From a virus (taxonomy: Duplodnaviria > Heunggongvirae > Uroviricota > Caudoviricetes): a stretch of 64,000 nt of DNA. The notes beneath the pieces were generated by a model, which was given only the letters and a program-made list of their open reading frames with translations, was not told the origin of the DNA and made no database searches. Below, piece after piece: positions 12,501-64,000 of this stretch. The first letter of the stretch is position 1, and every line of letters begins with the position of its first letter. The stretch lies in the IMG/VR virus record IMGVR_UViG_3300026097_000001, one strand, 5' to 3'. The position numbers and the translations under genes are program-made.

Positions 12501-14747
12501 AGCATCACCAGGAGAAGGATCTGGAAACGATGTTTCAAGAATAACCTGTGGGTCGAATGTCGGAGCTTGGTTAACGTCTTGTACAGATCCAAGAATCCTA
12601 AATGGATTACCTACTTTACCCTGTATACCTTGAACACCCTGCTCTCCAGTAATACCCTGTGTACCCTGAATTGCGGTACCTTGAACACCTTGGATGCCTT
12701 GGAAACCTTGGAATCCTCGATTGCCGATGATACCCTGAACACCTTGGATACCCTGTATGCCTTGTATTGCAGCACCTTGAATACCTTGAACACCCTGCTC
12801 TCCAGTGATACCTTGAATACCTTGAATACCCTGTGTACCTTGGACTCCTTGCATTCCTTGAATACCTTGGATACCCTGCGGTCCGACGATATCTCCAACG
12901 TTTATCCATTCGTTACCGTTCCATAGCCAAAGTTCATTCAGCTCTTCGTCGATTACGCCGTCGGATATGTCTGGGCTAGCAATACTAGGTCTTTCAGTTG
13001 GTGGCTGCCCATCGAGTGTTGGACCAAATGCTTCTCTTATTATTTCTTCAGGGGTACGCGCTGGAAAGTTGACGTTTACATCTTCAATAGATCCTATTAT
13101 TCGGAACGGATCTCCAGTTTTACCTTGAACGCCTTGCAGACCTTGAAGACCTTGGCTACCCTGCAGGCCTTGAACACCCTGTCCACCTTGAATACCTTGG
13201 ACGCCTTGCGATCCTTGTATACCCTGTACGCCTTGTACACCCTGCTCGCCTTGGATACCTTGTACACCTTGGTTCCCTTGAATACCTTGAATACCATCAA
13301 AACCTTGGATCCCTTGACGACCCTGCATACCCTGGATAGGAGATCCTTGCAGACCTTGAACCCCTTGCTCGCCTTGGATACCCTGAGTACCCTGAATACC
13401 TTGGATCCCTTGGACGCCTTGAATACCCTGACGACCCTGTAGACCCTGAACGCCCTGCTCGCCTTGGATACCTTGCTGGCCAGAAATTCCTTGGATACCC
13501 TGGAAGCCACGAATGCCTTGAATACCCTGGAAACCTTGGATACCCTGGACGCCTCTTAACTCTCCAACGTTTACCCAGGTACCGCCGCCGGTATAAGCCC
13601 AAAGCTCGTTTGTTGCTTCGTCAATAACAGTCTCACCAACGTTAACCGATGGGAACTGACCGTTTAATAACGTTTGTGGATTGTTAGGTGGATCTGTATT
13701 AACATCGGCTACCGCCCCAATGATTTTTAGAGCTGGGCCAAAGTTACCTTGGAGGCCTTGAGAACCTTGAAGTCCTTGCTCTCCCATAATACCTTGAACG
13801 CCCTGAACACCTTGGTTCCCTTGAATACCTTGAGTACCCTGAACGCCTTGAATGCCTTGCTCTCCGGTAAGACCTTGGAAACCTGCGCCGGTGATACCCT
13901 GAAATCCTTGGTTACCCTGAATGCCTTGCTCGCCTTGGATGCCTTGGACACCCTGTAGACCCTGTAGACCTTGAGTACCTTGCACTCCTTGTATACCCTG
14001 AAAACCTTGGATACCGAATGTTCCTTGAATACCTTGTAGACCTTGGTTACCAAATCCGGCAGTACCTTGTACACCTTGTTCTCCGGTAATACCTTGTGTA
14101 CCCTGTTCTCCTAAACCGCCGGTACCTTGAATACCCTGGTCCCCTTGAAGTCCTTGAACACCCTGAACACCTTGGATACCTTGCATACCCTGAACGCCTT
14201 GGTTTCCCTGTATTCCTTGCACACCTTGCATGCCTTGAGTACCCTGAACACCTTGTACCCCTTGAATACCTTGGAATCCCTGAACACCTTGGATACCACG
14301 TCGACCCTGTAGACCCTGTAGACCAAATTCACCGATAGTACCTTGAGTACCCTGAACGCCTTGCCAGCCTTGAATACCTTGCACGCCTTGAGTACCCTGA
14401 AGACCTTGCTCACCAGTTATACCTTGAAGACCTTGGAAACCAGTTTCGCCACGTCCTTCAATACCTTGGATACCTTGCGTACCTTGATTGCCCTTTGTAC
14501 CTTGAGTACCTTGAGTACCCTGAAGACCCTGTTCACCTTGAAGACCTTGGTTTCCTTGGAAGCCCTGAATACCCTGAATACCTTGTACGCCCTGCGCCGG
14601 ACCTTGAATACCTTGAATACCTTGAAGGCCCTGTCCACCATCGCCTGCGGACGACCTTACCCAAACGTTAGTCGTTGCGTCATACGTGAACACGACGGAT
14701 CCAATGACATATATGTCACCGTCTGCTGGATTTGTTGGAAATGCCAT
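9531..14747 (-). CDS. giant collagen-like tail-fibre protein with a globular C-terminal receptor-binding region
   Basis: 1738 aa; ~1000 aa of Gly-X-Y triplets (GIQGIQG...) interrupted by conserved ~55-aa non-collagen modules; ~650-aa non-repetitive Gly/Asp/Thr-rich C-terminus. Confidence 0.75.
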   Translation of the reverse strand: MAFPTNPADGDIYVIGSVVFTYDATTNVWVRSSAGDGGQGLQGIQGIQGPAQGVQGIQGIQGFQGNQGLQGEQGLQGTQGTQGTKGNQGTQGIQGIEGRGETGFQGLQGITGEQGLQGTQGVQGIQGWQGVQGTQGTIGEFGLQGLQGRRGIQGVQGFQGIQGVQGVQGTQGMQGVQGIQGNQGVQGMQGIQGVQGVQGLQGDQGIQGTGGLGEQGTQGITGEQGVQGTAGFGNQGLQGIQGTFGIQGFQGIQGVQGTQGLQGLQGVQGIQGEQGIQGNQGFQGITGAGFQGLTGEQGIQGVQGTQGIQGNQGVQGVQGIMGEQGLQGSQGLQGNFGPALKIIGAVADVNTDPPNNPQTLLNGQFPSVNVGETVIDEATNELWAYTGGGTWVNVGELRGVQGIQGFQGIQGIRGFQGIQGISGQQGIQGEQGVQGLQGRQGIQGVQGIQGIQGTQGIQGEQGVQGLQGSPIQGMQGRQGIQGFDGIQGIQGNQGVQGIQGEQGVQGVQGIQGSQGVQGIQGGQGVQGLQGSQGLQGLQGVQGKTGDPFRIIGSIEDVNVNFPARTPEEIIREAFGPTLDGQPPTERPSIASPDISDGVIDEELNELWLWNGNEWINVGDIVGPQGIQGIQGMQGVQGTQGIQGIQGITGEQGVQGIQGAAIQGIQGIQGVQGIIGNRGFQGFQGIQGVQGTAIQGTQGITGEQGVQGIQGKVGNPFRILGSVQDVNQAPTFDPQVILETSFPDPSPGDAVIDEATNNLWTYTPDAGGEWINVGNIVGPQGIQGVQGLQGTQGNQGIQGEQGTQGATGQQGTYGRQGVQGTGNTGSQGLQGIQGNQGLRGPGQGVQGTQGNQGIQGIQGTRGVQGRQGIQGRQGLQGMQGIRGQQGLQGSQGVQGVQGLQGTQGRQGIQGIQGIQGIQGIQGIQGLQGIQGIQGRQGIQGIQGRQGIQGRQGRQGIQGSQGVQGIQGTQGQQGRQGRQGRQGTQGQRGPQGYQGLQGSVGFQGRQGTKGAQGVQGRQGFQGIRGFQGTQGTTGEQGIQGIQGIQGNQGFQGIQGIAQAGPQGLQGQAGSVQGIQGSKGADGEGGGDPLPIGQEGEVLYNTQDDTNNAQFDDLVNIEPIIVSSEGEVPDYFTEPGPPAPTTQEIFEDWYRFSHNTTTNYPAREADVSESQWQYDSVADEIVGLNNTGTAVGFVSDLKYSFYTHTATLRSGQFDNDTVGVVLAFTAEGTLGQPDYREYTLTAFRTAGGTMGGRTWGVSYNIQQADGQIIADGSAAVPETGGWAALGSTIVDVDRQGDTIIVKTSPFGSAALSEASTLTIDLTDQTFVDDSGDPVLEKFRGFKSYGYMAYSQGDARFSGVFSGISLGANVVYDVVSGKVYGPSENLPYYQEIVGAATFNDIAEPGRFYNNPTSHFTTWRSSFDENNYIIGRENGGGSGSQGIQGIQGIQGTDGGGSSIDCVDCDYDEPTDTNNSVAIHSKQSMYLFIDDNNSAGEDSNYFGFYNNLDPYSDTVNRDNTIFRVDEDGSVRTTNTIYATTSGIRFPDDAYGGSGDTARIYLGTGGGEATQLTLEMTNDINDEIHLKVPDDNGVKINGYTVYHEGNHVCGNTGGGDGGGLSSRTNLIVATSSLADDASEDVNLTGFKGYAVYAITTDEAAWVRLYINAAARTADASRNEFTDPDPDAGVILEVITNGAETVVISPAVFGFNGEVPPTTNIPMTITNKSGSTTAIQVTVTALQLEV
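11460..14650 (-). repeat. 9-bp periodic coding repeat (Gly-X-Y codons, plus-strand ccttgRata units)
   Basis: Visible tandem ccttgaatacc/ccttggatacc periodicity; generates long shadow ORFs in all other frames. Confidence 0.8.
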
Positions 14748-20771: not shown

Positions 20772-21088
20772 ACCGATTCTTCATCTAAATCTTCTTCAAC
20801 AACGAAATCTTTTGCAAAGTCCTGAAGAGGATGATGAATTTCGTTTGCGTGTAGATGTAGGGATCGGATAGCTTCAAGTAAAAGTATGATGGAAGGAAAG
20901 TATTCTTCAGTATTTTCTTCGAACCGACACCCGGACCTTACCATCTCGAGTAGGACTAGATTCCACAGTTGTTCCGCAACGTCGTTTGAAAAGCTCGTTC
21001 TGTAATCTGCCAGCTTCTCTGCGAGTTCTTCTGCGGACTGTGGAGGAGTATCCAGCTTCATCTGTGGAAACGTAATCAGTTCACCCAT
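20747..21088 (-). CDS. acidic hypothetical protein
   Basis: 113 aa, strongly acidic. Confidence 0.35.
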   Translation of the reverse strand: MGELITFPQMKLDTPPQSAEELAEKLADYRTSFSNDVAEQLWNLVLLEMVRSGCRFEENTEEYFPSIILLLEAIRSLHLHANEIHHPLQDFAKDFVVEEDLDEESVDINEILD

Positions 21089-22034
21089 TTTGTAATACCT
21101 TTAATAAATTATTCCATGAATTCGTGAAATTATTTATACCGTTTCTTAGCAGACCAAAGCGCTCTGAAGATGTCATATTATTGAAGAGCTCTGGTTGTAA
21201 CTTCTGAGCCTTTAGCAGGTTCTTGACGACTGAAAATGCCATGTTTGCATGATCGTTTACAACCTCGGTGTACTCATACATAATCGTTGCATCCATCGCA
21301 GTTTCCTGTAGAGCACCGTAGCTTGGATGAACCACGAGGACTCCAGAACGAATGGCCTCAATCATAGCGATACACGACGTTTCCTGCCAGATCGATGGAA
21401 AGAGGAATATGTGAGACTCACGTAGAGCATCGAGTACCTTCTCATTACTTACGGCGCCATGATATGTCATATGACTGTGGTCTTTAATTTTATTAAACAG
21501 ATCCTCGAATGGCTTATCGCGTTGATCCCATCCATACACTGAGAACGAAGAGTATACGTCTAGATGTATGTTATCAAATTCCTTTGAGAGTGCATCTACA
21601 ATTGGATACACGAGCTCTAGACCACGGTGTGGTGTAGTGTGATAAATGAGGCGAATCGTATCCGTTTGTTTTTGAATTGGAGTATATTCTAGTTCAATTG
21701 AGTTTTGAATAACAGTGCATTTTGAATACGGAATACCGTAGAGTAGGATGTATTGGTCGCGTTGCCAGTATGAAACGAATACGAAGTGGTCAAACTTTTT
21801 CCAACCTTCATCTTTGAGGATCTTATTCTCAGGATCCATCGCAAGGTCATGACAGTAAAAGATATTCTTTACGTCATCGTAGATCTCACGTGGACGAGAT
21901 AAATGAATTGCGTATTCCTTAAGCAGATCTGGATCTGCGTTGCGTACAAGGCGGTCACGCATCATTTCAGTACCGCCTTTTGAATTCTTTGACAGATCGG
22001 TGTCTATCACCTTTCCTTTATATACGCAACTCAT
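21081..22034 (-). CDS. GT-B fold glycosyltransferase (GT4-like)
   Basis: 317 aa; C-terminal FLFPSIWQETSCIAMIEAIRSGVLVV fits the GT1/GT4 E-x7-E region. Confidence 0.45.
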   Translation of the reverse strand: MSCVYKGKVIDTDLSKNSKGGTEMMRDRLVRNADPDLLKEYAIHLSRPREIYDDVKNIFYCHDLAMDPENKILKDEGWKKFDHFVFVSYWQRDQYILLYGIPYSKCTVIQNSIELEYTPIQKQTDTIRLIYHTTPHRGLELVYPIVDALSKEFDNIHLDVYSSFSVYGWDQRDKPFEDLFNKIKDHSHMTYHGAVSNEKVLDALRESHIFLFPSIWQETSCIAMIEAIRSGVLVVHPSYGALQETAMDATIMYEYTEVVNDHANMAFSVVKNLLKAQKLQPELFNNMTSSERFGLLRNGINNFTNSWNNLLKVLQNG

Positions 22035-51735: not shown

Positions 51736-52036
51736 CGCGTTTCATCTGTTTGGTAAACTCTTTAAAGGAAGGCTTTTTCTTATATAGTTTAATAGTAAGG
51801 TGTGCTTTATCTTTACCCTTAATGCGCCAGTTCATACCTTTTTCTTTATGTTCAGGTTTTGTGGTTTTAACGACTCTACGTTTGTAACCATCTTCCCATG
51901 TTTCCGAACCTTCGGCCAGCGCAATCGCAGTTTTACATTTTCCGCAACATTGCGAAGTTCCGCAGTTTGGGTGCCCTTCTTCTAATCTTGGTATTTTTGA
52001 CATACTTTGTAAATGTTCTTTAAATGATTTCATCAT
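51710..52036 (-). CDS. hypothetical Cys-cluster basic protein
   Basis: 108 aa; CGTSQCCGKCK. Confidence 0.3.
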   Translation of the reverse strand: MMKSFKEHLQSMSKIPRLEEGHPNCGTSQCCGKCKTAIALAEGSETWEDGYKRRVVKTTKPEHKEKGMNWRIKGKDKAHLTIKLYKKKPSFKEFTKQMKRVAGHEFGG

Positions 52037-54290
52037 GCTTTACGATATACAATTTACCGTCCTCTGTTCTTATTCTTGCTCTCCCAGTTTCATCATCAGT
52101 ACCAACAAAGGTACCTTCTAATGTTTCGGAATTTCCAGTCACATAGTTATGAATAAATTTTACTTTATCGCCACGATGTATATTTGCATCTAATGCAGCT
52201 TCTTCAAGGTCTTGCCCGGGTGTATCTTTTTTATACTTTTTAGTTAAACTATCAGTTCCCCATTCTCTTTCTGATGGAGAGTCCTCTTTTTGTTCAGCTT
52301 TGTAACCGTACTTCTTTAAAAGCTGTTTTCGCTGTAAAGGATTACGTGTCATAGTTGCAGGTTCACCGTACTTTTTCTTGTATTCGGTCTCAAGTTTGCG
52401 AGCCGGTATACCAATGTTCGAAAGAGTAACGATTTGATTTATTATATCCCCAAGGCTTTCACCTTTTGAAACATGATTGTGTATTTTTTCAAGAACTTTA
52501 TTTAACATAGTTTGTTCATCTAAGCTTGAGAATTCTTCCTTCTCTTTATCTGTCAAACTAAATTGTTCCTTTCTAACTTTTGCTGCAAGGTCTTTATCTG
52601 CTTTACCCCAGGTTCCTTTTCCTTTGGTAGCAAATGAATTGACTCTTGCTAATCCCCATTGTGTTGGGGTTGTTCCTGGCCTGTGGCCAGTTCTCCAAGC
52701 AGCGACTCCACGATCAAAGACCTTCTTTAGAATACCATACGATATTCCAGTCTTTTCCGCCTTTTTCTTTAGAGCTTTTTTCGATTCTGTTAGATCGTCA
52801 AAATCTTCTGACATTAAGAAGTCTTCAAAATCTTTTGAGAAATTTAAGATATCATTTATATCATTGTTTAAATCTTCGCCCACCTGTTCTTTAGATTTAA
52901 ATATCTTAAATCGTTTATCAAACTTAACAGCGCCGGTTTTTTCTAAAGCCATGTGAGGTCTTTTTCGAACCGTCATATCTGCCTTTGCGGCTTCGCCAAA
53001 CATATCTTTAAACTTTTTCGTATGAACAGAAGGTTTTGTCTTTGCATCTTTATCGCCAGGGGCTGGTTTATATGCAGCAGGATTATCATCGTCCATCTTA
53101 CCATACTTTTTAAAGTGGCGAGCGCGATCGTCTTTCTTATCCTTATCTACACCTTTATAGTATCCCTTTGGCTGAGATCCTGGCATATCCTTTACATCAG
53201 GATCCTGAGGCTTTTTGGATCTTGATTCCATAAATACTTCAAACATTGCATCTGTACTATATTTTTCTTCATTCTTTTTTGGATTTAAAACACCAGCAAG
53301 ACGTTCTTTTTCTGCTTTTCTAACCTTTGGAAGAAGGCGAGTTGCAATTCTGTCTATTACTCTGCCAGGAATCTTTTGTAATCTTTTGTCTAGCGTAATC
53401 TTTTCGGCTGTAGACATTTCGGAATATTTTTTATTCTTTGATAGTCTATTTCTCATAAAGTTTAATGCTTGTTTACGCGATCTCTTTAACAACTTATCCT
53501 TAGGAGCCATCTTTCTCTTTGATCTCTCACGTGACATCTTAATCTTGGTCTTATACTTACGCATAGTCAAGGCTCTTTTTCTTCTCTGCTGAATTGAGAG
53601 AGGAGCTCTTTCCTCAAGATCTTCTTCTTGTAAATCAAGTTCTTCAGTTATGTTCATTCCTTTACGGACCATATTCATAACCGCTGTTGCAGTACCTTTT
53701 AGTTTTTTAGGCAGGCCTTGCTTAAATAGTCCGATGTCGCCAGCTTTTGCCGCTGCTCTCATTTTTGATGCAGACATGCCGGTTACGCCTTCAGAGTCAG
53801 GATCTCTTTCTCCAGCTGAAACTATTTCAATGTTTTCGAACGTATAGTCGAGTTCGTTATACTTTTTCAATAGAGTTTCAAACTCTTTGACTCTATCGGA
53901 TCCTACGACCAATACAAACTTGTCATATCTCTTTGACAGTTCTTTAGCAACTTCAATGATCGTTCGAGCCGAAGATCTCTTTACAATTTTGCCGAATGCC
54001 TTTTGGCCGAGTTTAACCTTTTGTTCGTATGATAGTGGATTCTTCTTTGCATCCTGAGAATGAGACATATATACCGCGGCATCAGCCTTGCGCTTTACAG
54101 CTTCCGTGATAACTCTGTTCACTAACTTTTCATGACCAACCGTGATTGGATTGAAACGACCAAAACTTATAACGACGGTCTTATTCGTAGCCTCATTCAT
54201 GACTGGTTCTACTTCTATATACTGAGAAGGATCGTGTTCCTTGACCTTCTTGGAATTCTTTTTCTTTTTATCATTTTCTTTTTCGACCAT
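52020..54290 (-). CDS. chimeric protein: N-terminal HxGH nucleotidyltransferase domain (PPAT/TagD-like) fused to a ~580-aa Lys/Arg-rich region
   Basis: 756 aa; residues ~40-200 have FGRFNPITVGHEKL (HxGH) and GVTGMSASKMR (ISxTxIR); the rest is highly basic low-complexity; a TATAAATA box sits 33 nt upstream. Confidence 0.55.
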   Translation of the reverse strand: MVEKENDKKKKNSKKVKEHDPSQYIEVEPVMNEATNKTVVISFGRFNPITVGHEKLVNRVITEAVKRKADAAVYMSHSQDAKKNPLSYEQKVKLGQKAFGKIVKRSSARTIIEVAKELSKRYDKFVLVVGSDRVKEFETLLKKYNELDYTFENIEIVSAGERDPDSEGVTGMSASKMRAAAKAGDIGLFKQGLPKKLKGTATAVMNMVRKGMNITEELDLQEEDLEERAPLSIQQRRKRALTMRKYKTKIKMSRERSKRKMAPKDKLLKRSRKQALNFMRNRLSKNKKYSEMSTAEKITLDKRLQKIPGRVIDRIATRLLPKVRKAEKERLAGVLNPKKNEEKYSTDAMFEVFMESRSKKPQDPDVKDMPGSQPKGYYKGVDKDKKDDRARHFKKYGKMDDDNPAAYKPAPGDKDAKTKPSVHTKKFKDMFGEAAKADMTVRKRPHMALEKTGAVKFDKRFKIFKSKEQVGEDLNNDINDILNFSKDFEDFLMSEDFDDLTESKKALKKKAEKTGISYGILKKVFDRGVAAWRTGHRPGTTPTQWGLARVNSFATKGKGTWGKADKDLAAKVRKEQFSLTDKEKEEFSSLDEQTMLNKVLEKIHNHVSKGESLGDIINQIVTLSNIGIPARKLETEYKKKYGEPATMTRNPLQRKQLLKKYGYKAEQKEDSPSEREWGTDSLTKKYKKDTPGQDLEEAALDANIHRGDKVKFIHNYVTGNSETLEGTFVGTDDETGRARIRTEDGKLYIVKHDEII

Positions 54291-54333: not shown

Positions 54334-54894
54334 TTAGCTTCTTAGTTCAAAATTATCCTTTGAGAAAAAGTTATCCATACAATACTGCTTTTCAACTGGA
54401 TAATCATGAGGGCAGGCCCTTTCTCTTTTACCCTGTGGATCTGTAAATGTCGCAGATTCTTTCCAATCGAAACCATATACCGTAACCATCTTTGGATCGC
54501 ACGTAGAGATGTAATCTAAAGTAATCAAACCCGTTGTAGGATTGGCATGTTTTCCTGCTTTTAACTTTAGTGGTTTGTATAGAGAATCTGGGTACACAAA
54601 ATCTACTTTACTTAGATTATTATGAGATCTACCCTGATGGCCAGCGTGAACCTTTTTTATGTTATTTGCAATCTTTGGGAACTGCATTTTGTATTCTGAA
54701 GTATTCCAAAAGAACCATACGTCTGTTCTTTTTCCATGGCTCTTTATTGCGTCCTTACGTGTGTATAACACGGCGGCTTTATTTAACCGCACTACAATAT
54801 CATGAGAGTCTATCTCTTCACCATATTCTCTATCAAATAATGATATTGCATTGCCAATCACAGCAACCGTTTTATTTTCAAACCATTCTTTCAT
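54334..54894 (-). CDS. GT29-like (sialyltransferase-motif) glycosyltransferase, paralogue 1
   Basis: 186 aa; L-motif KTVAVIGNAISL...GEEIDSHDIVVRLNKA and S-motif PTTGLITLDYISTCDPKMVTVYGFDW. Confidence 0.55.
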   Translation of the reverse strand: MKEWFENKTVAVIGNAISLFDREYGEEIDSHDIVVRLNKAAVLYTRKDAIKSHGKRTDVWFFWNTSEYKMQFPKIANNIKKVHAGHQGRSHNNLSKVDFVYPDSLYKPLKLKAGKHANPTTGLITLDYISTCDPKMVTVYGFDWKESATFTDPQGKRERACPHDYPVEKQYCMDNFFSKDNFELRS

Positions 54895-55400
54895 TTTCTT
54901 AGTTCAAATACCTTATCTTTATTTTGAAAGAATCTTTCTCTGCAATAGTTTCTTTCGAGAGGAAAATTGTGGCGATCCTCCTTTAATTGTTTATTATGAA
55001 ACGATGGAGTTTGTTTCCAATCATAACCATATACATAAACCTTCTTAGGATCGTATAATGATATAAGATGTAATATTCTTAAACCAGTCGAAGGACGATG
55101 ATGGCCGAGATCTTCTTTTAACCATTCTATGTCAATCTCTTTGTGATGAAGTATTTCTACGATATGATCGCACGATTTATTAGTAACTCTACTCGGCTTC
55201 ATAGTTTTAAACCAGTTTAAAAACCACACATCAGTCCTTTCGCCGTGAGACTTTACATCCTTAGGCTGCAACATAAAGAACCCACGTTTTATTCTACATA
55301 CCACATCAGCAGAATCTATTTCACTCCCATAATCTTTTTCAAAAAGACTCTTTGCATTACCTACTACCGCAACGGTCTTACCTTCAAAAACTTCCTTCAT
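54891..55400 (-). CDS. GT29-like (sialyltransferase-motif) glycosyltransferase, paralogue 2
   Basis: 169 aa; KTVAVVGNAKSL...GSEIDSADVVCRIKRG and PSTGLRILHLISLYDPKKVYVYGYDW. Confidence 0.55.
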   Translation of the reverse strand: MKEVFEGKTVAVVGNAKSLFEKDYGSEIDSADVVCRIKRGFFMLQPKDVKSHGERTDVWFLNWFKTMKPSRVTNKSCDHIVEILHHKEIDIEWLKEDLGHHRPSTGLRILHLISLYDPKKVYVYGYDWKQTPSFHNKQLKEDRHNFPLERNYCRERFFQNKDKVFELRK

Positions 55401-55406
55401 ATTATC

Positions 55407-56084
55407 CTAGAGACCGTGTTGTTGACTATAATCCATATAGATGCGTTCTCTATGCCATTCGTCTGCCATAGGAGTCGTTGCGAAATCGTGGAAACATGGA
55501 GTACCTAGAGTATAGTGTAGCAACTTTGCATCCGGGTTTGCACCAAACTCGTCAGGCAACCAGTTCCATTCAATCGGAAGTTCACCGATCTCATTATCAG
55601 GCAACCAACTAAATCTATGTACCTTTGCGCCGGTTGCGTTCTGAACAAAATCTGGAGTAACAACGCTATTTCCAGGATGTGCACAGTTCCAGAGTATTAC
55701 GCTCGACCAGTTTTTACGAGGATAGTCTTCGTTCTTTGCACCAAGGTACTTCTCCTTCATGCGAGTCTTATAATCGTGCTTTACTACCATCACGGCCTTC
55801 GAGTCATCACGCATTTCCCAAAGTTTTGCGATATCGTCTCGAAATATCATATCACCATCTACGAACAGTGCCCAGCCCTTGTATCCCATTAGATGAGGAA
55901 TAAGAAACCTACTGTATATGAAATGGTTGCTTCCATCCGTATGCTTCTCTTCATAACCCTTTAAAAGGTTGAGTGATAGCGGATTGATGCTTACCGGTTC
56001 AGATGAATTTCTTATGATAGAATTGGAACATACGTGATATGCTGTTGCCTCTCTCACATCGTATCCCATAAACACTGGTATCAT
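55407..56084 (-). CDS. glycosyltransferase family 8 (LPS alpha-1,2/1,3 hexosyltransferase-like)
   Basis: 225 aa; FIYSRFLIPHLMGYKGWALFVDGDMIFRDDIAKLWEM (GT8 DxD region). Confidence 0.6.
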   Translation of the reverse strand: MIPVFMGYDVREATAYHVCSNSIIRNSSEPVSINPLSLNLLKGYEEKHTDGSNHFIYSRFLIPHLMGYKGWALFVDGDMIFRDDIAKLWEMRDDSKAVMVVKHDYKTRMKEKYLGAKNEDYPRKNWSSVILWNCAHPGNSVVTPDFVQNATGAKVHRFSWLPDNEIGELPIEWNWLPDEFGANPDAKLLHYTLGTPCFHDFATTPMADEWHRERIYMDYSQQHGL

Positions 56085-56623
56085 TGTTTCTTTTTCCTTC
56101 TGCTATTCATTATATCTATCGTTAAGTTTTTTATTAGTATATCTTTAGGTTGATCCATTAACCACTTGATTGTGTTTGCGATATAATCAGTTTCTATTCG
56201 AGGGTATTCTCTTCTATGATCCGTCATTGGAGTATTCATTCTTCCGAGTTTTAAATGAATGATCTTGCAACTCGTATCAATAAGTTGCAGCTGCAGGCAG
56301 GTTTTTTCTAACGCAGCCTTATGAATAGCATATTCATTAACCGCATCCCTGTTGCCATCAGCGCTCACGCTCCCAACATTAATTACCGTGCAATCTCTAT
56401 ATTTATTTTTTTCAAACAACTTATATAAAAGAGTAGTCTGCGAATAATCATGGTATGCATTGTTTATGTATACGTCAAAATCATCAACTAAGAATGTATC
56501 TAGGTCTTTGCTTAAATCATATCCGTTTTGTCTACTTAAACCGACTACTTCATGATCTTTTGATAAAATATTATATAAAGTTTTACCAAGACCGCTTGTA
56601 TGTCCTGTAATCACTATCTTCAT
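56081..56623 (-). CDS. short-chain dehydrogenase/reductase-like Rossmann protein
   Basis: 180 aa; N-terminal MKIVITGHTSGLGKTL glycine-rich NAD(P) motif. Confidence 0.5.
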   Translation of the reverse strand: MKIVITGHTSGLGKTLYNILSKDHEVVGLSRQNGYDLSKDLDTFLVDDFDVYINNAYHDYSQTTLLYKLFEKNKYRDCTVINVGSVSADGNRDAVNEYAIHKAALEKTCLQLQLIDTSCKIIHLKLGRMNTPMTDHRREYPRIETDYIANTIKWLMDQPKDILIKNLTIDIMNSRRKKKQ

Positions 56624-56624
56624 T

Positions 56625-57599
56625 TTATTTTTTATACCTATTCATATCTGCTTCGACCATTTCAGTAATCATACGTTCAAAAGTATATTCCGGCGTCCAA
56701 TCTAGAGTCTTCTTTGCTTTATCAGAGTCGGCATGGAGACTGTGTAGCTCGTTAGGTCTTTCAAACTCCTCGTCACTTACAACATAACTTTCCCAATCGT
56801 TTATACCGACAGTATTAAATGCTACACTACATAGATCACGTACGCTGTGTTTAATTCCCGTCGCAATAATAAAGTCTTCTGGCTTTTCTTGTTGCATCAT
56901 TAACCACTGTGCACGAACGTAGTCTTCAGCGTGACCCCAATCGCGTTCGGCATCAAGGTTTCCAAGAACCACCTTATCCTGTAAACCGTTCTTAATTCTT
57001 GCTACTCCATCCGTTATCTTTCTTGAAACAAATTCAATTCCGCGTATCGGCGACTCGTGATTAAATAGCAATCCAGTACAGGCATACGCATCGTAACTCT
57101 CACGATAGTTTTTAGTAATATGATATCCGTATAGTTTAGCGATACCGTATGGACTTACCGGCTCAAAGGGAGTCTTTTCATTCTGTCTTCCATCTATATT
57201 ACTGTTTCCAAACATTTCGCTGGTGCCCGCTTGGTAAAACTTTGTATCCGGTTTAATACGACGAATTGCTTCTAGACAGTTTAACGGGCCGAGCGCATCA
57301 ACGTGAGTGGTTACATACGCAAGTCTCCAAGAACCTCCAACAAAGCTCTGGGCTGCTAGGTTATAGAGTTCGTCTGGTTGCACTATCTCCATTACATCCA
57401 TCATACTGCAAGGATCCGTAACATCCCCAACGATTGTTTTTAAACCTTTATTGAAAAGATCTAGGTACTCGATGTTATTCCAGTTTGGACTACTATATCT
57501 TTTAACGAGACCATAAACATCATACCCTTTTTCTAATAATAGTTTACCAAGATAGCAGGCATCTTGTCCAGGAAATCCTGTAATTAAAGCGGTCTTCAT
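56625..57599 (-). CDS. gmd: GDP-mannose 4,6-dehydratase
   Basis: 324 aa; ALITGFPGQDACYLGKLLLEKGYDVYG, YNLAAQSFV, TSEMFG and the YGIAKL active-site region match Gmd along the full length. Confidence 0.85.
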   Translation of the reverse strand: MKTALITGFPGQDACYLGKLLLEKGYDVYGLVKRYSSPNWNNIEYLDLFNKGLKTIVGDVTDPCSMMDVMEIVQPDELYNLAAQSFVGGSWRLAYVTTHVDALGPLNCLEAIRRIKPDTKFYQAGTSEMFGNSNIDGRQNEKTPFEPVSPYGIAKLYGYHITKNYRESYDAYACTGLLFNHESPIRGIEFVSRKITDGVARIKNGLQDKVVLGNLDAERDWGHAEDYVRAQWLMMQQEKPEDFIIATGIKHSVRDLCSVAFNTVGINDWESYVVSDEEFERPNELHSLHADSDKAKKTLDWTPEYTFERMITEMVEADMNRYKK

Positions 57600-58774
57600 T
57601 TTATATTCCTTATTACATCTGCTACCATATCGATCTTTTCAGAGAGATCGACACAATCGTTTCCTATAAAGAAACCGTCGTAATGAAGCTTATCGGTTCC
57701 TTCAAAGGTTCCACTACTGTCCCAGTTTAATCTATCTATCACTGGGTTCTTCATAAAGTTACCTGCAACGATTGGTCGTGTTTCTACACCATTCGCCGTG
57801 AGTTCCTCGATTACTTTCTTTCTTTTGCCGGCAAGATCGTCCTCGAGGATCAATCCAAAACCAAACCAGCTACTCTTTTCGTGCTCTACTTGAAGTCTTA
57901 TGTTAGGAACATCAGCAAAGACCTTCTTGGCGACCTCGGCGTTCTTTCTTCGATCTATCATCATCTGAGGCCACTTTTTGAGCTGTTCTTGGCCGATCGC
58001 ACCACTCATCTCAAGAGGGCGTACGCAATAGCCTGGAAGTATAAACTTAAAGCTGTCTTCAAACGGATCACCGGACTTTTTAAACAATGGATCGTCAGAT
58101 GTACTATCCCTTAACCAACCGTGAGCTCTTAGGCTCTTTAGGTACTCGTAGGTCGTATCATCGTTCGTAAGAACCATGCCACCTTCCATAGTCTGCATGT
58201 GGTGGCTAAAGAAGAAACTAAACGTTCCCATCTCGCCGATAGATCCACAGTGCCTGTCGTATTCAAGCGCACCTAGACTCTCACAGTTATCTTCAAGCAA
58301 TGTGATATCCTTTGCATCACATATCTGTTTTAATCTCTTGAGCTCGGCGGGGTTACCTAGAAGGTTAACAACAAAGACGGCCGCGGTATCTTCATCGATC
58401 GCTTCTTCTACAGCTTTAGGATCTATGTTAAATGTATATGGATCCACGTCAACGAACCGCAGAGTATATCCCCACTGATGAACAGGGAAGTATGTTGTAC
58501 TCCAACTCACGGCAGGTACGATTATGTTTCCCTTATTCTTATACTTTGGATTCAATGCAAGCGCCGCTATTGTAATCAGATTGGCGCTGCTACCGCTATT
58601 CGTCATAACGGCATACTTACTTCCAAAGAACTCAGCAAACTGTTCTTCGTATCTTTTTACTTCTTCACCCATCGTATACTTACCACTTGCGATTACACGA
58701 TGAATAGCACTAACTTCTTCATCACCCCAAGTATCACTTGCTAATCTATATTTCACGGGAACTTTCCTTTCCAT
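57596..58774 (-). CDS. DegT/DnrJ/EryC1-family sugar aminotransferase (perosamine-synthase-like)
   Basis: DegT-family conservation (DTWGDEEVSAIHRVIASGKYTMGEEV..., TNSGSSANLI); start trimmed to the internal Met MERKVPV because the 52-aa extension in the track ORF looks spurious. Confidence 0.7.
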   Translation of the reverse strand: MERKVPVKYRLASDTWGDEEVSAIHRVIASGKYTMGEEVKRYEEQFAEFFGSKYAVMTNSGSSANLITIAALALNPKYKNKGNIIVPAVSWSTTYFPVHQWGYTLRFVDVDPYTFNIDPKAVEEAIDEDTAAVFVVNLLGNPAELKRLKQICDAKDITLLEDNCESLGALEYDRHCGSIGEMGTFSFFFSHHMQTMEGGMVLTNDDTTYEYLKSLRAHGWLRDSTSDDPLFKKSGDPFEDSFKFILPGYCVRPLEMSGAIGQEQLKKWPQMMIDRRKNAEVAKKVFADVPNIRLQVEHEKSSWFGFGLILEDDLAGKRKKVIEELTANGVETRPIVAGNFMKNPVIDRLNWDSSGTFEGTDKLHYDGFFIGNDCVDLSEKIDMVADVIRNIK

Positions 58775-59640
58775 TGTATAACACTGTTTAAATATTCGAA
58801 TGTTTTTAAATCCTGTGCCTCGCCGATTGTATATTGGCCGTGCGCAAGACTTTGAAAGAGTGGCATTCTTTCTTTCTCTGTAAGATTTTCTATTTGGCTT
58901 ATCGAATGTGAAAGTGGAAACGCTGGGCAAAACTTGTCACATATAACCGGTACTCCCATTCTTAAGGCGTCTAACGCAGCAGAACTGTTATATGCGACAA
59001 CACAGTATGCGTCTTCAAAAGCTTCTTCGAGGCTCTCTTCGTATTTTGGTTTACCTTTTACTTTTTTTGGATTAATTAACAGATTGTCAATAGTATCACC
59101 GGGTTTTCTTCTTACGATAATAGGTCTATTCGTATACTTTCTTATTTCGTTAATTATATTTTGTTCCCAAGCTAGCTTATCAAAAACTTTGGCAACTACA
59201 TTGCTTGGAGGGAGAATAACGATATTTTGCTTATCCTTAAAATTATAATCTCTAAACTCTAGATCAAAGTTGGTTTCAAATCTCTCTTTACTTACATTCG
59301 GGATAATTGCATTTTGAGCAAACCCGTTCTTTGTAATTCTCATCCAGCACGGGCCGTTATAACCTTTACTAAAGTATGCGTGATCTATGTAATAAAAATC
59401 TACATGGCGCTTCCTTGCCATCTCAAAAAGATGGGCATTTCCACGAAGAATACCCGAAAAAATAATCGCCTTAGCCCGAGGAGGAATGCCCTTCTTTATA
59501 ACTTTTTCTGGCAATGTTCCGTTTGGTTTCTGCACTGATATGAGATGCCGCGTATGTACTATCTTTGCTCCACACGCAGACCCAAACGCTTTTACATAGC
59601 GATCCTGCTCTCTTTTACCTGATAAAAAAGCATATATCAT
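58753..59640 (-). CDS. TagF/KpsS-like GT-B transferase (CDP-alcohol or CMP-sugar dependent)
   Basis: 295 aa; C-terminal YCVVAYNSSAALDALRMGVPVICD resembles the TagF-family motif; paralogous to 60997..62016. Confidence 0.4.
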   Translation of the reverse strand: MIYAFLSGKREQDRYVKAFGSACGAKIVHTRHLISVQKPNGTLPEKVIKKGIPPRAKAIIFSGILRGNAHLFEMARKRHVDFYYIDHAYFSKGYNGPCWMRITKNGFAQNAIIPNVSKERFETNFDLEFRDYNFKDKQNIVILPPSNVVAKVFDKLAWEQNIINEIRKYTNRPIIVRRKPGDTIDNLLINPKKVKGKPKYEESLEEAFEDAYCVVAYNSSAALDALRMGVPVICDKFCPAFPLSHSISQIENLTEKERMPLFQSLAHGQYTIGEAQDLKTFEYLNSVIQWKGKFP

Positions 59641-59644
59641 TATA

Positions 59645-60433
59645 TTACCTTACATTATTCCAATATTGATTTTTTCTTTTTACAATCAGGTCGCCTTTAT
59701 GGCTGGTACCCTTCTTTTTTCGAGGGCCTTTCATATGATCCATAAATTCTCCAAGAGGTCCATTGATAAAGGGGTGGTTATTTTTAATAGAAGGACTCAG
59801 GTTGTGCCAGTGTTTTGGATCAAACCTTTTCATGGCATCGTCATACGTATGACAGTCGGTCCAATTTTCTAGACCAAAGATACTATCGTCTAGGTAGTAT
59901 TTCTTCCATGCATTTAAAAAGTCCTTGGCAATCTCGTGGTTCATATTAAAGATATGAAAGCCGGTTTCGGTATACATCCATGGGCGCGCAAGGTATCCTG
60001 CAAACTTTTCATTTGGGCACCAGTTGCCAATGTCACTTCTCTGAACCGGAGAGTGCGTTCTACTATCGCCATCTAACCACACGAGGATGTCGGTTTCATT
60101 TTCTTCTAGGAATTGAAATAAGGCGAAAACTTTATGACTAAACCTTACAGCATCGAAGCGATAATTTTTTTTACCATTTGTTGCGTGTCTACCTAACCCG
60201 TTTGCCTCAGGATTGTTTTTATGTCTCTCTTTAAATGATAAAAGATCCTTATGATCTAGGATTTTATATTGTACTCTCGGATCTCTTATCAGATCCTTCT
60301 TTGGTATCGGGTCATCAACATAGACGGTTAAATAAGTATCCTTTGGCCAGTTTTCTATGAACCCTCTTACTAATAAGCCACCGGTCTCTTTCCATCCTTG
60401 GAGGCTATAACACGTTACTGCATTTATCCGCAT
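59645..60433 (-). CDS. hypothetical glycan-island protein
   Basis: 262 aa, Trp/His-rich; operon context only. Confidence 0.3.
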   Translation of the reverse strand: MRINAVTCYSLQGWKETGGLLVRGFIENWPKDTYLTVYVDDPIPKKDLIRDPRVQYKILDHKDLLSFKERHKNNPEANGLGRHATNGKKNYRFDAVRFSHKVFALFQFLEENETDILVWLDGDSRTHSPVQRSDIGNWCPNEKFAGYLARPWMYTETGFHIFNMNHEIAKDFLNAWKKYYLDDSIFGLENWTDCHTYDDAMKRFDPKHWHNLSPSIKNNHPFINGPLGEFMDHMKGPRKKKGTSHKGDLIVKRKNQYWNNVR

Positions 60434-60996
60434 GGCAAATCCTTTCTATCAAACACCAGGCCGCGTATTTTTACAAATTGTTGTCTGTCTTTTCTTATTT
60501 CGTTGTTCATTAAAGTAACCGACGCACCTCTCACAGCCATAGTTTCTTTTAGATTAATATCAAACCCATACTCTTTAAATACCTTTACCCAATAGATCTC
60601 AGTCTGCTCGTTGACGTGATTCTTTCCACCCCAAAATGGAGGTGCGGCCGTAAGAATTACTCTCTTACACTTTTGAAAATCTTTCATAAAGATTGGAATA
60701 CACTTTTCTTCAACGTGTTCAACGAACTCTACGCTCCAACCGAGATCAAAATCAATATCAAAGTCTGATGAACCTATTCTATAATCAACCTGCTGAAAGT
60801 TATTTGATTTTGGTGTTTCGTTTGTACCGTCTACGCCATACGCATTGATACCAAGCTTTAACGCTTCCAATACTTGACCGCCTGTACCGCATCCAATATC
60901 AATCATAGTCTTTACGTTCCATTTTTCTTTCGCATATCTCAGCGCTTCAATGTCAACGTTTGTACCACCGCCGTGTTGTTTTTCTTTAAAATCCAC
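60424..60996 (-). CDS. class I SAM-dependent methyltransferase
   Basis: 190 aa; motif I MIDIGCGTGGQVLEAL. Confidence 0.6.
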   Translation of the reverse strand: MDFKEKQHGGGTNVDIEALRYAKEKWNVKTMIDIGCGTGGQVLEALKLGINAYGVDGTNETPKSNNFQQVDYRIGSSDFDIDFDLGWSVEFVEHVEEKCIPIFMKDFQKCKRVILTAAPPFWGGKNHVNEQTEIYWVKVFKEYGFDINLKETMAVRGASVTLMNNEIRKDRQQFVKIRGLVFDRKDLPCG

Positions 60997-62016
60997 TTAT
61001 GAATACTTTCTTATTAATTTTTCCACGTAATAGGATGCTTGCCCAGTTTCAAAATAGGTCGTTGGGATCTCGGTGCAAGACATATTTTTTACCCACCTAA
61101 GGACTTCTTTTTTTGATGCAAGATATGGATTATTTATAGTATTTAAATTTGTATTATTTAAGTCTCTTCCAAAGTTTTCATCTGCACAGTACGTTGGTAT
61201 GCCTGCGTCTATTAACTCAAATATACTAGTTGAATTGTTAATTACTGCACAGTACATATCTTCATACATTTCTCTAATATTTTGCTTTGAACTTAAAAAC
61301 TTTATATTCTTATACTTTTTTGTTAAGTATTGATATTCTTTTTGCATTTTACTTGCAGGATGAATTTTAATTTTTATTCTTCTTTCGGTATGCTTTCTTA
61401 TAGTTTTTATGGAGCTTTCTAAAAATTCGTTTATTGGCATAGTACTCGTTGGATCTATCTCAAGACCGGTGAATATGTATATAGAACCACATTTATTTAC
61501 ATTCCAAGAATGATCATACAAACGTTCAGCATTTATTGTTCTAAGTATATTAAAATCTTCTGGAGTTAACCACTTTCCATGTTCATATACCCAACTGTCT
61601 AAAGAAATTCTTATGTTTGCTTTGTGGTCTGTTTTACGGTAATTATCTTCGGCTCTTGATATCGTTCTACTCTCAAAGACGACGATCTTTTTGTCATGTT
61701 TTCTTGCCAGATCTACCCAGTGCGAATTTAAAACGTCCAAGACAGCGCTTCTTAACTTATATTTCTGTTGTAATTCGCCGCTTGATACTCTATCGTATGA
61801 AAAATCTGGAGGGATATGAAGTTGCTTTCTTAAATCACTGCCCCACGTACCATTTAACACAATTGCATCAGCATCGTAAAAATAGTTCATATACTCCTGT
61901 GGAATAAAATCTTTATCTTTAATCTTAAATTCGTTAAAGTAACTTATGGATGGGCTGTCTGTCATCCTTGCGAATTTTTCGGTAGATCTAGATGTCACTG
62001 AAACGAAATATTTCAA
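60997..62016 (-). CDS. TagF/KpsS-like GT-B transferase, second paralogue
   Basis: 339 aa; C-terminal YCAVINNSTSIFELIDAGIPTYCAD homologous to the same region of 58753..59640. Confidence 0.4.
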   Translation of the reverse strand: MKYFVSVTSRSTEKFARMTDSPSISYFNEFKIKDKDFIPQEYMNYFYDADAIVLNGTWGSDLRKQLHIPPDFSYDRVSSGELQQKYKLRSAVLDVLNSHWVDLARKHDKKIVVFESRTISRAEDNYRKTDHKANIRISLDSWVYEHGKWLTPEDFNILRTINAERLYDHSWNVNKCGSIYIFTGLEIDPTSTMPINEFLESSIKTIRKHTERRIKIKIHPASKMQKEYQYLTKKYKNIKFLSSKQNIREMYEDMYCAVINNSTSIFELIDAGIPTYCADENFGRDLNNTNLNTINNPYLASKKEVLRWVKNMSCTEIPTTYFETGQASYYVEKLIRKYS

Positions 62017-62570
62017 AGTTTATTCTCCTTAGATCCACGAAGGATAAAATTATCTCTATTGAAAAAGTTCTGATAACAATATTCTTTTTCTTCGCTAAAA
62101 ACGTGGGCAACGCACTTTCTTTTTTCGTGCCAAGAATATGTTTCTTTCCAGTCAAAACCGTAGACGTGTACGCTCTTTGGATCCTGCTTAGAAATGTAAT
62201 AGAGGACTCTGAGCCCGGTCGAAGATTTCTTTGTTAGGTTGCTGTCAAGATCTATTCTATCCTCTTCAGAAAAGACTGTATCAGCCATTTCTATAAACTC
62301 AGGAGATACGCTTGTGGTATCCATCTGCATCTTAAGAACACCTTTGTTGTGAGCGGTATTAAAATGCGCTTTGTTCTGTCGAATGTTTTGCATACACCAT
62401 ACGTCGATACGCGATCCCATCTGCTTCCTATATTGAGGAAACCGATACCCACCGCGATTGATCCTTACGACTACGTCCGCAGTGTCTATCTCATTGCCAT
62501 ATCTCTGTTGTATGAGAGACGCCGCGTTGCCAACTACCGCAACCGTCTTTCCTTCAAACCATTCTTTCAT
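62013..62570 (-). CDS. GT29-like (sialyltransferase-motif) glycosyltransferase, paralogue 3
   Basis: 185 aa; KTVAVVGNAASL...GNEIDTADVVVRINRG and SSTGLRVLYYISKQDPKSVHVYGFDW. Confidence 0.55.
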   Translation of the reverse strand: MKEWFEGKTVAVVGNAASLIQQRYGNEIDTADVVVRINRGGYRFPQYRKQMGSRIDVWCMQNIRQNKAHFNTAHNKGVLKMQMDTTSVSPEFIEMADTVFSEEDRIDLDSNLTKKSSTGLRVLYYISKQDPKSVHVYGFDWKETYSWHEKRKCVAHVFSEEKEYCYQNFFNRDNFILRGSKENKL

Positions 62571-62590: not shown

Positions 62591-62620
62591 AAGATAATAA
62601 AAAAGGAGGCCTGAGCCTCC
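62591..62620 (-). terminator. rho-independent terminator
   Basis: Minus strand GGAGGC-TCAG-GCCTCC followed by TTTTTTATTATCTTTATT; only ~35 nt before the first glycan-island gene. Confidence 0.6.
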
Positions 62621-62649
62621 CTATATTTATCAAATGTTGTAGAGTAGAT

Positions 62650-62847
62650 CTACTGTAGTTTTTTCATTTCAAGGATGCAGTTCTTAGCTGCTTTATGATA
62701 GCCCAAGCGGGTTAATTCAGAGGCAGATCTTGCATATCCTGCTATCATAAATGCATTGTTTATCTTGGCCAAGAATTTTTTAAACAAAGAAGGTCTTGAC
62801 GCCGGTATATGAATTGTTTCTGTATAAAAAGCCATAATTACACCCAA
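62650..62847 (-). CDS. hypothetical protein
   Basis: 65-aa ORF. Confidence 0.3.
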   Translation of the reverse strand: MGVIMAFYTETIHIPASRPSLFKKFLAKINNAFMIAGYARSASELTRLGYHKAAKNCILEMKKLQ

Positions 62848-63092
62848 CCTTTTAGGTTACGGTTTACTTTTGTGCTTGGATATTCTCTATGAAATTTTTC
62901 ATTTGCAATAGCATAGATATCCCCACGTGAGATACCCATATCATTGAGTTCGCGGTTTGATAGAGATGATAGTTCGCTGATTGTTTTATTAACTTGCTTT
63001 CTGTGTTGATAGTAACTTACCAAACCTGAGAAGATATTGGATACGAAAGAAAAGTCAAAGAGTGCTTTTGTATTTTGTAATGTGTGGCTCAT
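62838..63092 (-). CDS. hypothetical protein
   Basis: 84-aa ORF; its translation start is embedded in the 63095-63147 hairpin. Confidence 0.3.
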   Translation of the reverse strand: MSHTLQNTKALFDFSFVSNIFSGLVSYYQHRKQVNKTISELSSLSNRELNDMGISRGDIYAIANEKFHREYPSTKVNRNLKGWV

Positions 63093-63217: not shown

Positions 63218-64000
63218 TCAGCGAGTAATCTCTTCCCAATCCATAGAAGCAAAAATATCTTCGTCATTAGTTCCAGCAGCGACCAAAAATGTAAGCGGCT
63301 CTGAAACTCCGGTAAACGAATCTCTTTCTAGCTGAAACTTAAATACCGCTTCTTTTAAGATATCCAACGTAGGCGAACCTTGATTTGATGAATTCAAATA
63401 CCCCTGTGCAAGAACTCTACCACCACCATCGTGCGCGGTTCCAGCTAGGGTATATTCGACTGAGGAATCAGAACCGGCACTCGTCCAAGAAGCTGTTGTT
63501 ACTGCGCCTCCTGCAACAATTCTCCATGAAAAGTTTACACCGTTACCAACACCCAACAAAGATACCGCAGTTAAGATAGCTATTGCATCCTGTCTTGCGG
63601 ACTTCAGTCTAATTGAGACGACGGGGTAATATGTTCCTGCATCGTCCAAAGCGTATGAACTTGTGATTGGAGTTCCAACGGCGTGCTGCCTGCCTCTCAA
63701 TTCATAACCGCCTTCGCTAATAACGGTGCTACAAATTTGTTTTGCTTGACTTGCACTAGAAGTGGCACCCGTGTTTGTTATTTCTTGTCTTATTGGTAAA
63801 GATGCGGTTGTCATGTACGTTGATTCAATTAAATTTGCATGATGAAACGCGTGACAAGGAATAAACTGGCCGTTGATTGCAAAACCAAAACGCACGCTAC
63901 CGACACCCAACCATTCAAAATCTACCCACATGAGTTGAACCTTAGTCAGATCTAAAGTTACGCCACTTGGGCCTGTGCCATCTAACGAGTCAACATTCCA
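63218..64000 (-). CDS. Gly/Thr/Ser-rich structural protein, 5' end beyond the window
   Basis: The reading frame stays open to the window edge upstream of the listed Met; beta-rich composition typical of virion proteins. Confidence 0.35.
   Translation of the reverse strand, partial: WNVDSLDGTGPSGVTLDLTKVQLMWVDFEWLGVGSVRFGFAINGQFIPCHAFHHANLIESTYMTTASLPIRQEITNTGATSSASQAKQICSTVISEGGYELRGRQHAVGTPITSSYALDDAGTYYPVVSIRLKSARQDAIAILTAVSLLGVGNGVNFSWRIVAGGAVTTASWTSAGSDSSVEYTLAGTAHDGGGRVLAQGYLNSSNQGSPTLDILKEAVFKFQLERDSFTGVSEPLTFLVAAGTNDEDIFASMDWEEITR

Follow-up and report, generated by a model that had tools for sequence, protein, structure and literature searches.

A glycan operon of an uncultured marine phage with a predicted ColD-type dehydratase and a probable GDP-linked 3,6-dideoxyhexose pathway

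Introduction

As surface determinants, 3,6-dideoxy sugars are rare and strongly antigenic; most known examples come from the O-antigens of enterobacteria and Vibrio. The canonical route to GDP-L-colitose comprises ManB/ManC, Gmd, ColD and ColC, and canonical colitose clusters end with ColC, a GDP-fucose-synthase-like extended short-chain dehydrogenase/reductase (SDR) that acts as C5-epimerase and C4-reductase. Here, we analyse a glycan operon of 11 tightly packed genes (62570 to 54334, all on the minus strand, about 8 kb, with junctions of -22 to +6 nucleotides (nt)) in IMGVR_UViG_3300026097_000001, a large, uncultured, marine tailed phage whose genome is probably 180-220 kb long. The stretch analysed, hereafter the window, spans 64,000 nt of this record. 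The operon is proposed, with a probability that we place near 0.75, to encode a GDP-linked 3,6-dideoxyhexose pathway consisting of the GDP-mannose 4,6-dehydratase Gmd, a ColD-type dehydratase, a minimal SDR of 180 residues (SDR180) and flanking glycosyltransferases.

The dehydratase class represented by ColD has a histidine in place of the aminotransferase lysine (PMC8987622). ColD does not carry the four-cysteine 2Fe-2S motif that E1 and SpnQ have; its 3,4-mannoseen intermediate is hydrolysed, and the pyridoxamine 5'-phosphate (PMP) is regenerated from glutamate (PMC8987622). An earlier note on this DNA had read the locus as Gmd plus a DegT-family aminotransferase on a GDP-perosamine-like route. 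With the correction reported here, from aminotransferase to dehydratase, a 3,6-dideoxy sugar takes the place of the amino sugar in the predicted chemistry.

Materials and methods

Window proteins were annotated by searches with Pfam, NCBIfam and PHROG and by comparison with the sequences of the Protein Data Bank (PDB). The viral comparison set comprised 58 IMG/VR viral contigs carrying a ColD with 49-88% identity to the window protein. Module counts over these 58 loci were obtained by clustering all their open reading frames (ORFs) and are lower bounds, owing to contig ends. Cellular relatives were sought among GTDB species representatives, in which 16 ColD loci were found, and deposited relatives among 50,697 phages. 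A query with the ColC-like protein of cyanophage S-CAM7 was run against loci L059-L081 only.

Results

Identification of the ColD-type dehydratase

The gene at 57596-58774 (minus strand; ORF 57596-58930 if read from its most upstream start) belongs to the DegT/DnrJ family, as the earlier note had stated (Pfam DegT_DnrJ_EryC1, PF01041, E 3e-77). When its product was compared with the PDB, the top matches were the four Escherichia coli O55:H7 ColD entries. The match to 2gms (E 1.4e-117, 396 bits) is full length, with residues 7-388 of the query on residues 4-389 of the chain, and BLASTP gave 49% identity to E. coli ColD over 386 residues. The catalytic pair Ser190-His191 of the window protein aligns with Ser187-His188 of ColD, and the window reads FFFSHH at the column where the wild-type enzyme reads SFYSHH. 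This column was fixed by means of the deposited ColD mutant chains, whose motif FYSHH in the wild type (2gms) becomes SNH in H188N (3b8x), SKH in H188K (2r0t) and NKH in S187N/H188K (3gr9); the corresponding motif of the window protein is FFFSHHMQTMEGG. Histidine occupies the column in all 57 viral homologues. The CxCx7C Fe-S motif is absent from the window protein and from the same 57 homologues, which share one conserved cysteine column only.

Judged from its sequence, the protein is an orthologue of ColD and not an aminotransferase, that is, a predicted GDP-4-keto-6-deoxy-D-mannose 3-dehydratase of the DegT family working with PMP/pyridoxal 5'-phosphate. Given the ColD identity and the Ser-His pair, a 3,6-dideoxyhexose of the colitose type is predicted as the product, rather than a 4-amino-4,6-dideoxy sugar. 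Of the earlier proposal of an aminotransferase acting on a GDP-sugar, one half stands, as the closest characterised relative is a GDP-sugar enzyme, whereas the other does not, this relative being the dehydratase ColD with its Ser-His pair.

Two start codons come into consideration, ATG 58774 (392 residues) and GTG 58756 (386 residues), the latter with a GTGA start/stop overlap with the upstream ORF and an AGGA 8 nt upstream. If translated, the 52-residue N-terminal extension of the longer ORF would run 178 nt into the upstream ORF 58753-59640; ColD-type homologues are 386-392 residues long, and the alignment with E. coli ColD begins at residue 7. These data bear out the view of the earlier note that the extension is probably untranslated. 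Its suggested start near 58774 is possible, but GTG 58756 is an alternative, and most relatives begin at the equivalent of MKY(R/P/K)LA. Downstream, the gene overlaps gmd by 4 nt, and the pairing is kept in 53 of the 58 viral loci and in the 16 cellular loci.

The GDP-mannose 4,6-dehydratase

The next gene (56625-57599, minus strand) encodes a Gmd of 324 residues, and its full-length match, reported previously, was confirmed: the product covers Pfam GDP_Man_Dehyd (PF16363) over profile positions 1-332 of 332 (E 3.8e-109) and NCBIfam TIGR01472 over positions 1-341 of 342 (E 8e-110), with the next-best NCBIfam family models at 88 bits or less. In the PDB, eleven solved GDP-mannose 4,6-dehydratases (GMDs) were retrieved at E values from 3e-104 to 4e-84 (1rpn, E 3.4e-104), followed by the GDP-heptose dehydratase family at E 1.6e-30. 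The E values of Gmd and of the DegT-family protein are well outside the range of chance matches. The catalytic residues Thr126, Glu128, Tyr151 and Lys155 are present, as are an RGIEFVSRK motif and the cofactor motif TGFPGQDA. Overall, the protein is a divergent, short form of the enzyme.

SDR180

The gene at 56081-56623 (minus strand) begins 1 nt past the gmd stop codon and shares 4 nt with the GT8-like gene that comes next. It encodes a minimal classical SDR, which is weakly matched by Pfam adh_short (22.2 bits against a cut-off of 26.6). Its motifs are TGHTSGLG at residues 6-13 (TGxxxGxG), NNAY at 54-57, S85 and Y98-x3-K102. In 34 diverse homologues, no variation was seen at T6, G7, G11, G13, R31, N55, Y98 or K102 and hardly any at S85; R31 is a basic residue of the NADP(H) type, and use of this cofactor is predicted. 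The AlphaFold2 model shows a Rossmann fold (predicted local distance difference test (pLDDT) score of 95), for which Foldseek returned classical NADP-dependent ketoreductases as nearest structures, at 13-21% identity.

SDR180 homologues were detected in 118 instances, all metagenomic and all of about 170-186 residues. An SDR180 gene follows gmd in 23 of the 58 IMG/VR loci, and the ColD-Gmd-SDR order is kept down to 43% SDR identity, as in the DegT-Gmd-SDR operon with 4-nt overlaps of loci L064 and L065. No match was found by tblastn in the 50,697 deposited phages, and a scan of genome contigs with the single SDR180 protein, a method that reaches close relatives only, yielded no relative.

Proposed pathway and its main alternative

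In the first step of the proposed pathway, Gmd would oxidise and dehydrate host GDP-D-mannose to GDP-4-keto-6-deoxy-D-mannose. In the second, His191 of the ColD-type enzyme would take a proton from the PMP-sugar Schiff base, with expulsion of the C3 hydroxyl, and hydrolysis would release GDP-4-keto-3,6-dideoxy-D-mannose and ammonia. PMP would be restored from glutamate, with no Fe-S reductase partner required. Strong homology and active-site evidence make these two steps highly probable. For the third step, synteny suggests that the translationally coupled SDR180 would reduce the C4 keto group and so replace the bifunctional epimerase/reductase ColC; this role as C4 ketoreductase for the ColD product is our best inference for SDR180, at odds just short of even. 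Epimerisation at C5 would not be expected of an SDR with a plain Ser-Tyr-Lys site. If SDR180 does have this role, the sugar may retain its D configuration at C5 and so be a 3,6-dideoxyhexose of the D series, different from L-colitose itself. In a fourth step, the flanking glycosyltransferases, with a 262-residue protein of GT-A fold as the first candidate, might add the sugar to a glycan of the infected-cell envelope or of the virion.

DNA glycosylation was also considered as a target of the sugar and rejected as unsupported. With 319 bits for TIGR03284, whose cut-off is 108, the ThyA homologue of the window is a genuine thymidylate synthase, so that nothing suggests hydroxymethyl-pyrimidine DNA.

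Several observations weigh against the proposed pathway. Gmd scores 367.2 bits with TIGR01472, below the equivalog cut-off of 415. Nucleoside diphosphate (NDP) sugars are normally the substrates of extended SDRs, whose C-terminal substrate-binding domain is lacking in SDR180, a classical SDR, and its top 50 Foldseek matches include no NDP-sugar reductase. The SDR180 gene is missing from roughly one in two viral loci with ColD-Gmd and from all loci examined in SAR11, and SDR homologues of a more distant branch (38-41% identity) stand apart from any Gmd or ColD; therefore, the SDR is not obligatory for the pathway. The window covers 64 kb of the genome, so ColC may lie elsewhere in it or be supplied by the host. 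Lastly, every step of the pathway is read from homology or synteny.

The alternative that best survives, which we consider improbable, keeps Gmd and ColD in the same roles and places SDR180 outside the sugar chemistry. A ColC/Fcl-type enzyme, encoded by the host or distally in the phage, would then form true GDP-L-colitose, or a bifunctional Gmd with 4-reductase activity would finish the sugar. The patchy distribution of SDR180 favours such a scheme, as do the extended SDRs present instead in a few viral loci (L037, L048, L053 and L021), the ColC-like gene used in the S-CAM7 cluster, and the fact that SDR180 resembles NDP-sugar reductases in the shared Rossmann core only. Some GMDs, such as those of PBCV-1 and Pseudomonas aeruginosa, also show 4-reductase activity, and the P. 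aeruginosa enzyme is the best PDB match of the window Gmd, which supports the bifunctional option. A lack of any role for SDR180 is, however, hard to square with its position 1 nt from the gmd stop and its 4-nt overlap with the next gene, with the persistence of the ColD-Gmd-SDR trio to 43% SDR identity, and with the failure to find a further reductase in the operon or the window. Likewise, tblastn of the 64-kb window with Gmd and with E. coli Fcl as queries, the latter to be taken as a lead only, found no second extended SDR. We continue to favour the pathway in which SDR180 acts on the product of ColD.

Amino-sugar and CDP-sugar alternatives

The GDP-perosamine-like amino sugar of the earlier note would require the DegT-family protein to be a perosamine synthase-type 4-aminotransferase, with the operon making a 4-amino-4,6-dideoxy sugar. 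This scheme, which can draw on the family membership, the neighbouring gmd and the fact that perosamine synthases are detectable homologues at E about 1e-28, was rejected as contradicted by the sequence and is exceedingly improbable. The perosamine synthase entry 3bn1 was matched with E 3.6e-28 and 101 bits, about 295 bits below ColD; the catalytic lysine is replaced by His191, and the preceding residue is serine, not asparagine. Wild-type ColD is devoid of transaminase activity (PMC8987622). The earlier note had also suggested looking for an acyl- or formyltransferase: none of the 11 operon genes matched an N-acyl- or N-formyltransferase family, which is consistent with a non-amino sugar. Nor did the protein cluster with UDP-sugar-specific enzymes, an outcome that the same note had weighed, since the best match is the GDP-sugar enzyme ColD and ArnB reached E 6.7e-29 at best (8sng; 1mdo, E 1.1e-24).

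Equally remote is the reading of automatic annotation, in which the protein would be an E1/RfbH-type CDP-4-keto-6-deoxyglucose 3-dehydrase leading to a CDP-linked 3,6-dideoxyhexose such as abequose, paratose or tyvelose. RfbH is the best NCBIfam model (E 8.8e-71), though far below its cut-off (238.9 against 423 bits), and therefore homologues carry the JGI label "CDP-6-deoxy-D-xylo-4-hexulose-3-dehydrase". This reading was rejected on that shortfall and on the absent four-cysteine 2Fe-2S motif; moreover, the E1 structure 3bcx reached 146 bits (E 1.2e-41) against 396 for ColD, the neighbouring dehydratase is a GDP-mannose enzyme that reaches no better than E 2.7e-21 with the model for CDP-glucose 4,6-dehydratase, and neither an E3 reductase nor a glucose-1-phosphate cytidylyltransferase was found in the operon.

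Viral and cellular relatives

About 50 contigs of uncultured viruses share ColD-Gmd together with three families resembling glycosyltransferases. By locus, ColD was found in 58 of 58, Gmd in 53, the 262-residue GT-A family in 49, which makes it the most constant partner of ColD-Gmd, the family of the 295-residue operon protein also in 49, usually in at least two copies per locus, and the GT8-like gene in 40.

Viral ColD-Gmd loci devoid of the SDR often carry, within the module, a small Cupin_2 protein of about 117-136 residues (22 loci, e.g. L027, 12891-13301, and L040, 12943-13296). This protein is absent from the window and matches generic Cupin_2 only; in principle, it could be a supply enzyme resembling mannose-6-phosphate isomerase or a sugar isomerase/epimerase.

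In the deposited phages, the 9-kb glycan cluster gave no megablast match, and the closest ColD has 35% identity. The canonical colitose-type cluster of the cultured Synechococcus cyanophage S-CAM7 (L059, KU686213.1, 164047-167901) contains gmd, a colC-like gene labelled "GDP-L-fucose synthetase", a His-bearing colD-like gene and a GT11 gene. Its ColD-like protein shares 33% identity with that of the window, and its best PDB match is ColD (5e-50). Its label as a CDP-glucose-pathway enzyme or "aminotransferase" is probably a mis-annotation. As S-CAM7 and ACG-2014f carry this ColD-like set, phage-borne ColD chemistry is already present in public genomes. No paper on a virus-encoded colitose pathway was found in the literature available to us.

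The nearest cellular ColD-Gmd pairs obtained come mostly from SAR11: of the 16 ColD loci in GTDB species representatives, 11 belong to Pelagibacteraceae (SAR11). These loci (L066-L079, from single-amplified and metagenome-assembled genomes; e.g. L066, 5989-8203) share the colD-gmd order of the phage, with the pair directly following metG-tatD-DUF6165 and at the edge of a glycosyltransferase-rich region, and their ColD is 51-56% identical to the window protein. No ColC-like gene was found within 6 kb of them.

Other genes of the operon

The genes are transcribed in the order GT29-like copy c, 339-residue protein, methyltransferase-like, 262-residue protein, 295-residue protein, ColD, Gmd, SDR180, GT8-like, GT29-like copy b and GT29-like copy a. 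Immediately upstream of the first gene lies a strong terminator-like GC-rich hairpin (62603-62622, minus strand) with a stem of 8 pairs, 5 of them GC, and a T-run (TTTTATTATC tail); on its 5' side, the transcription unit is probably delimited by this hairpin.

The 262-residue protein (59645-60433, minus strand) had no Pfam, NCBIfam or PHROG match, and a hidden Markov model (HMM) of its family found nothing significant among PDB sequences. Its AlphaFold2 model (pLDDT 96) was placed by Foldseek next to GT6 alpha-1,3-galactosyltransferase/ABO transferases and GT8 glycogenin (probability 1.0, TM-score 0.45-0.55), so that the retaining transferases of GT6 and GT8 are the closest folds. On this model and an invariant D121-x-D123 motif, the protein is predicted to be a glycosyltransferase of GT-A fold with a DxD motif and is the candidate transferase for the dideoxy sugar.

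ORF clustering united the 295-residue protein (58753-59640, minus strand) with its 339-residue paralogue (60997-62016, minus strand) in a family of 115 members in 50 loci. The paralogue has a weak DUF7514 match only; the 295-residue family has no family match, and its HMM found nothing significant among PDB sequences. We suspect that these proteins are glycosyltransferases.

The gene at 60424-60996 (minus strand) encodes a protein of 190 residues resembling S-adenosylmethionine-dependent methyltransferases, with a Pfam Methyltransf_11 match barely above cut-off (E 3e-4), and is found in a subset of the viral relatives. The suggestion of the earlier note that the SDR and this methyltransferase might tailor the sugar is plausible. 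The GT8-like glycosyltransferase (55407-56084, minus strand, 225 residues) matches PF01501 above cut-off (E 7.5e-8) and phrog_28018 (E 8e-40).

Three GT29 (sialyltransferase)-like genes complete the operon, all on the minus strand: copy a, the last gene (54334-54894; PF00777, E 1.2e-12), copy b (54891-55400; E 4.9e-10) and copy c, the first gene, which overlaps the next by 4 nt (62013-62570; E 5.8e-12). The products are paralogues of 169-186 residues that exceed the Pfam gathering cut-off, although the match is confined to the sialyl-motif-L portion of the profile. No PHROG family was matched, and the deposited phages gave one weak match. To our knowledge, GT29 is largely restricted to eukaryotes and their viruses, and the presence of the trio in a phage is odd.

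Directly downstream of the operon, a protein of 756 residues (52020-54290, minus strand) has an N-terminal cytidylyltransferase-like domain (PF01467), PHROG 3041/395 matches and a DUF5824 segment, and is kept in close relatives. Upstream, a DUF1127 protein (62838-63092, minus strand, E 4.9e-10) lies between a virion structural gene (phrog_1645, 63218-63931) and the operon; it is kept in close relatives at 40-44% identity. A further GT4-family glycosyltransferase gene (21081-22034, minus strand) is distant from the operon.

Remaining genes of the window

The window also encodes a ribonucleotide reductase, a Dda-like helicase, an RNA ligase, a virion structural protein, PhoH, a T4-type RNase H, ThyA, a GH19 endolysin and a tail fibre protein with collagen-like repeats (9531-14747, minus strand, 1738 residues), whose local G+C content is 0.46-0.50 compared with about 0.40 elsewhere. 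A full-length 5-aminolevulinate synthase (2939-4138, minus strand) scored 558.7 bits with TIGR01821, against a cut-off of 338.55 (E 6.7e-168), and is, by its sequence match, a predicted phage-borne auxiliary gene of the haem pathway. The bacterial enzyme is typical of Alphaproteobacteria, which is a hint at the host; the latter may be an alphaproteobacterium or a SAR11-like cell.

Discussion

The ColD-Gmd modules of dozens of uncultured marine phage contigs and of SAR11 genomes are routinely labelled as "aminotransferase" or "CDP-sugar dehydrase". A phage-borne glycan operon of 11 genes suggests that marine phages rewrite the surfaces of their hosts or virions, which would bear on superinfection exclusion, grazing and receptor recognition. 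If SDR180 does replace ColC, it would be a new and compact reductase for nucleotide sugars, of possible use in the enzymatic synthesis of dideoxy sugars and in the prediction of glycans from metagenomes.

A wider and tentative proposal, which we hold to be doubtful at present, is that the widespread marine-phage module of ColD, Gmd, the GT-A protein, the GT8-like protein and the multi-copy 295-residue family makes a GDP-3,6-dideoxy-D-hexose other than colitose, that SDR180 represents a new, non-extended class of nucleotide-sugar 4-ketoreductases, and that the sugar remodels a host surface glycan or decorates the virion.

Comparison with known systems

The GDP-perosamine synthases (Per/RfbE; 3bn1, 3dr4) share the fold family and the substrate GDP-4-keto-6-deoxymannose with the window protein, but Per has a catalytic lysine after an asparagine and transaminates, whereas the window protein has Ser-His. 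The S187N/H188K double mutant of ColD is reported to acquire aminotransferase activity, with GDP-perosamine as its product. The Pelagibacteraceae ColD-Gmd pairs agree with the phage locus in gene order, in 51-56% ColD identity, in the lack of a nearby ColC-like gene and in their position at a glycosyltransferase-rich edge; they differ in being cellular and in having no SDR180, 262-residue GT-A family or GT8-like gene. The cyanomyovirus cluster of S-CAM7/ACG-2014f likewise combines a phage Gmd and a His-bearing ColD-like gene among glycosyltransferases, near tail-fibre genes. In contrast to the window, it has its own ColC-like extended SDR and a GT11 gene, and is devoid of SDR180, the 262-residue GT-A family and GT29-like genes.

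With the canonical GDP-L-colitose pathway, the operon shares the first two committed steps, for which Gmd and ColD are clear orthologues. It departs from that pathway in that ColC was found neither in the window nor in most related viral loci, with SDR180 after Gmd instead; in addition, the GT11 type of colitosyltransferase is absent from the cluster, which has other glycosyltransferase families, and the product may not have the L-xylo configuration. At the level of the single enzyme, the ColD (WbdK; 2gms, 2gmu) of E. coli O55:H7 and Yersinia pseudotuberculosis has in common with the window protein the 49% full-length identity, the length class, the Ser-His pair, the absence of an Fe-S motif and the location beside gmd. 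The window gene differs in being phage-borne, in the order colD then gmd and in having no accompanying colC, manB or manC, and the activity of its product is a predicted one. The core chemistry is known from these systems; what is new here is a predicted colitose-type route without ColC and with a minimal SDR, set in a phage operon of unclassified transferases.

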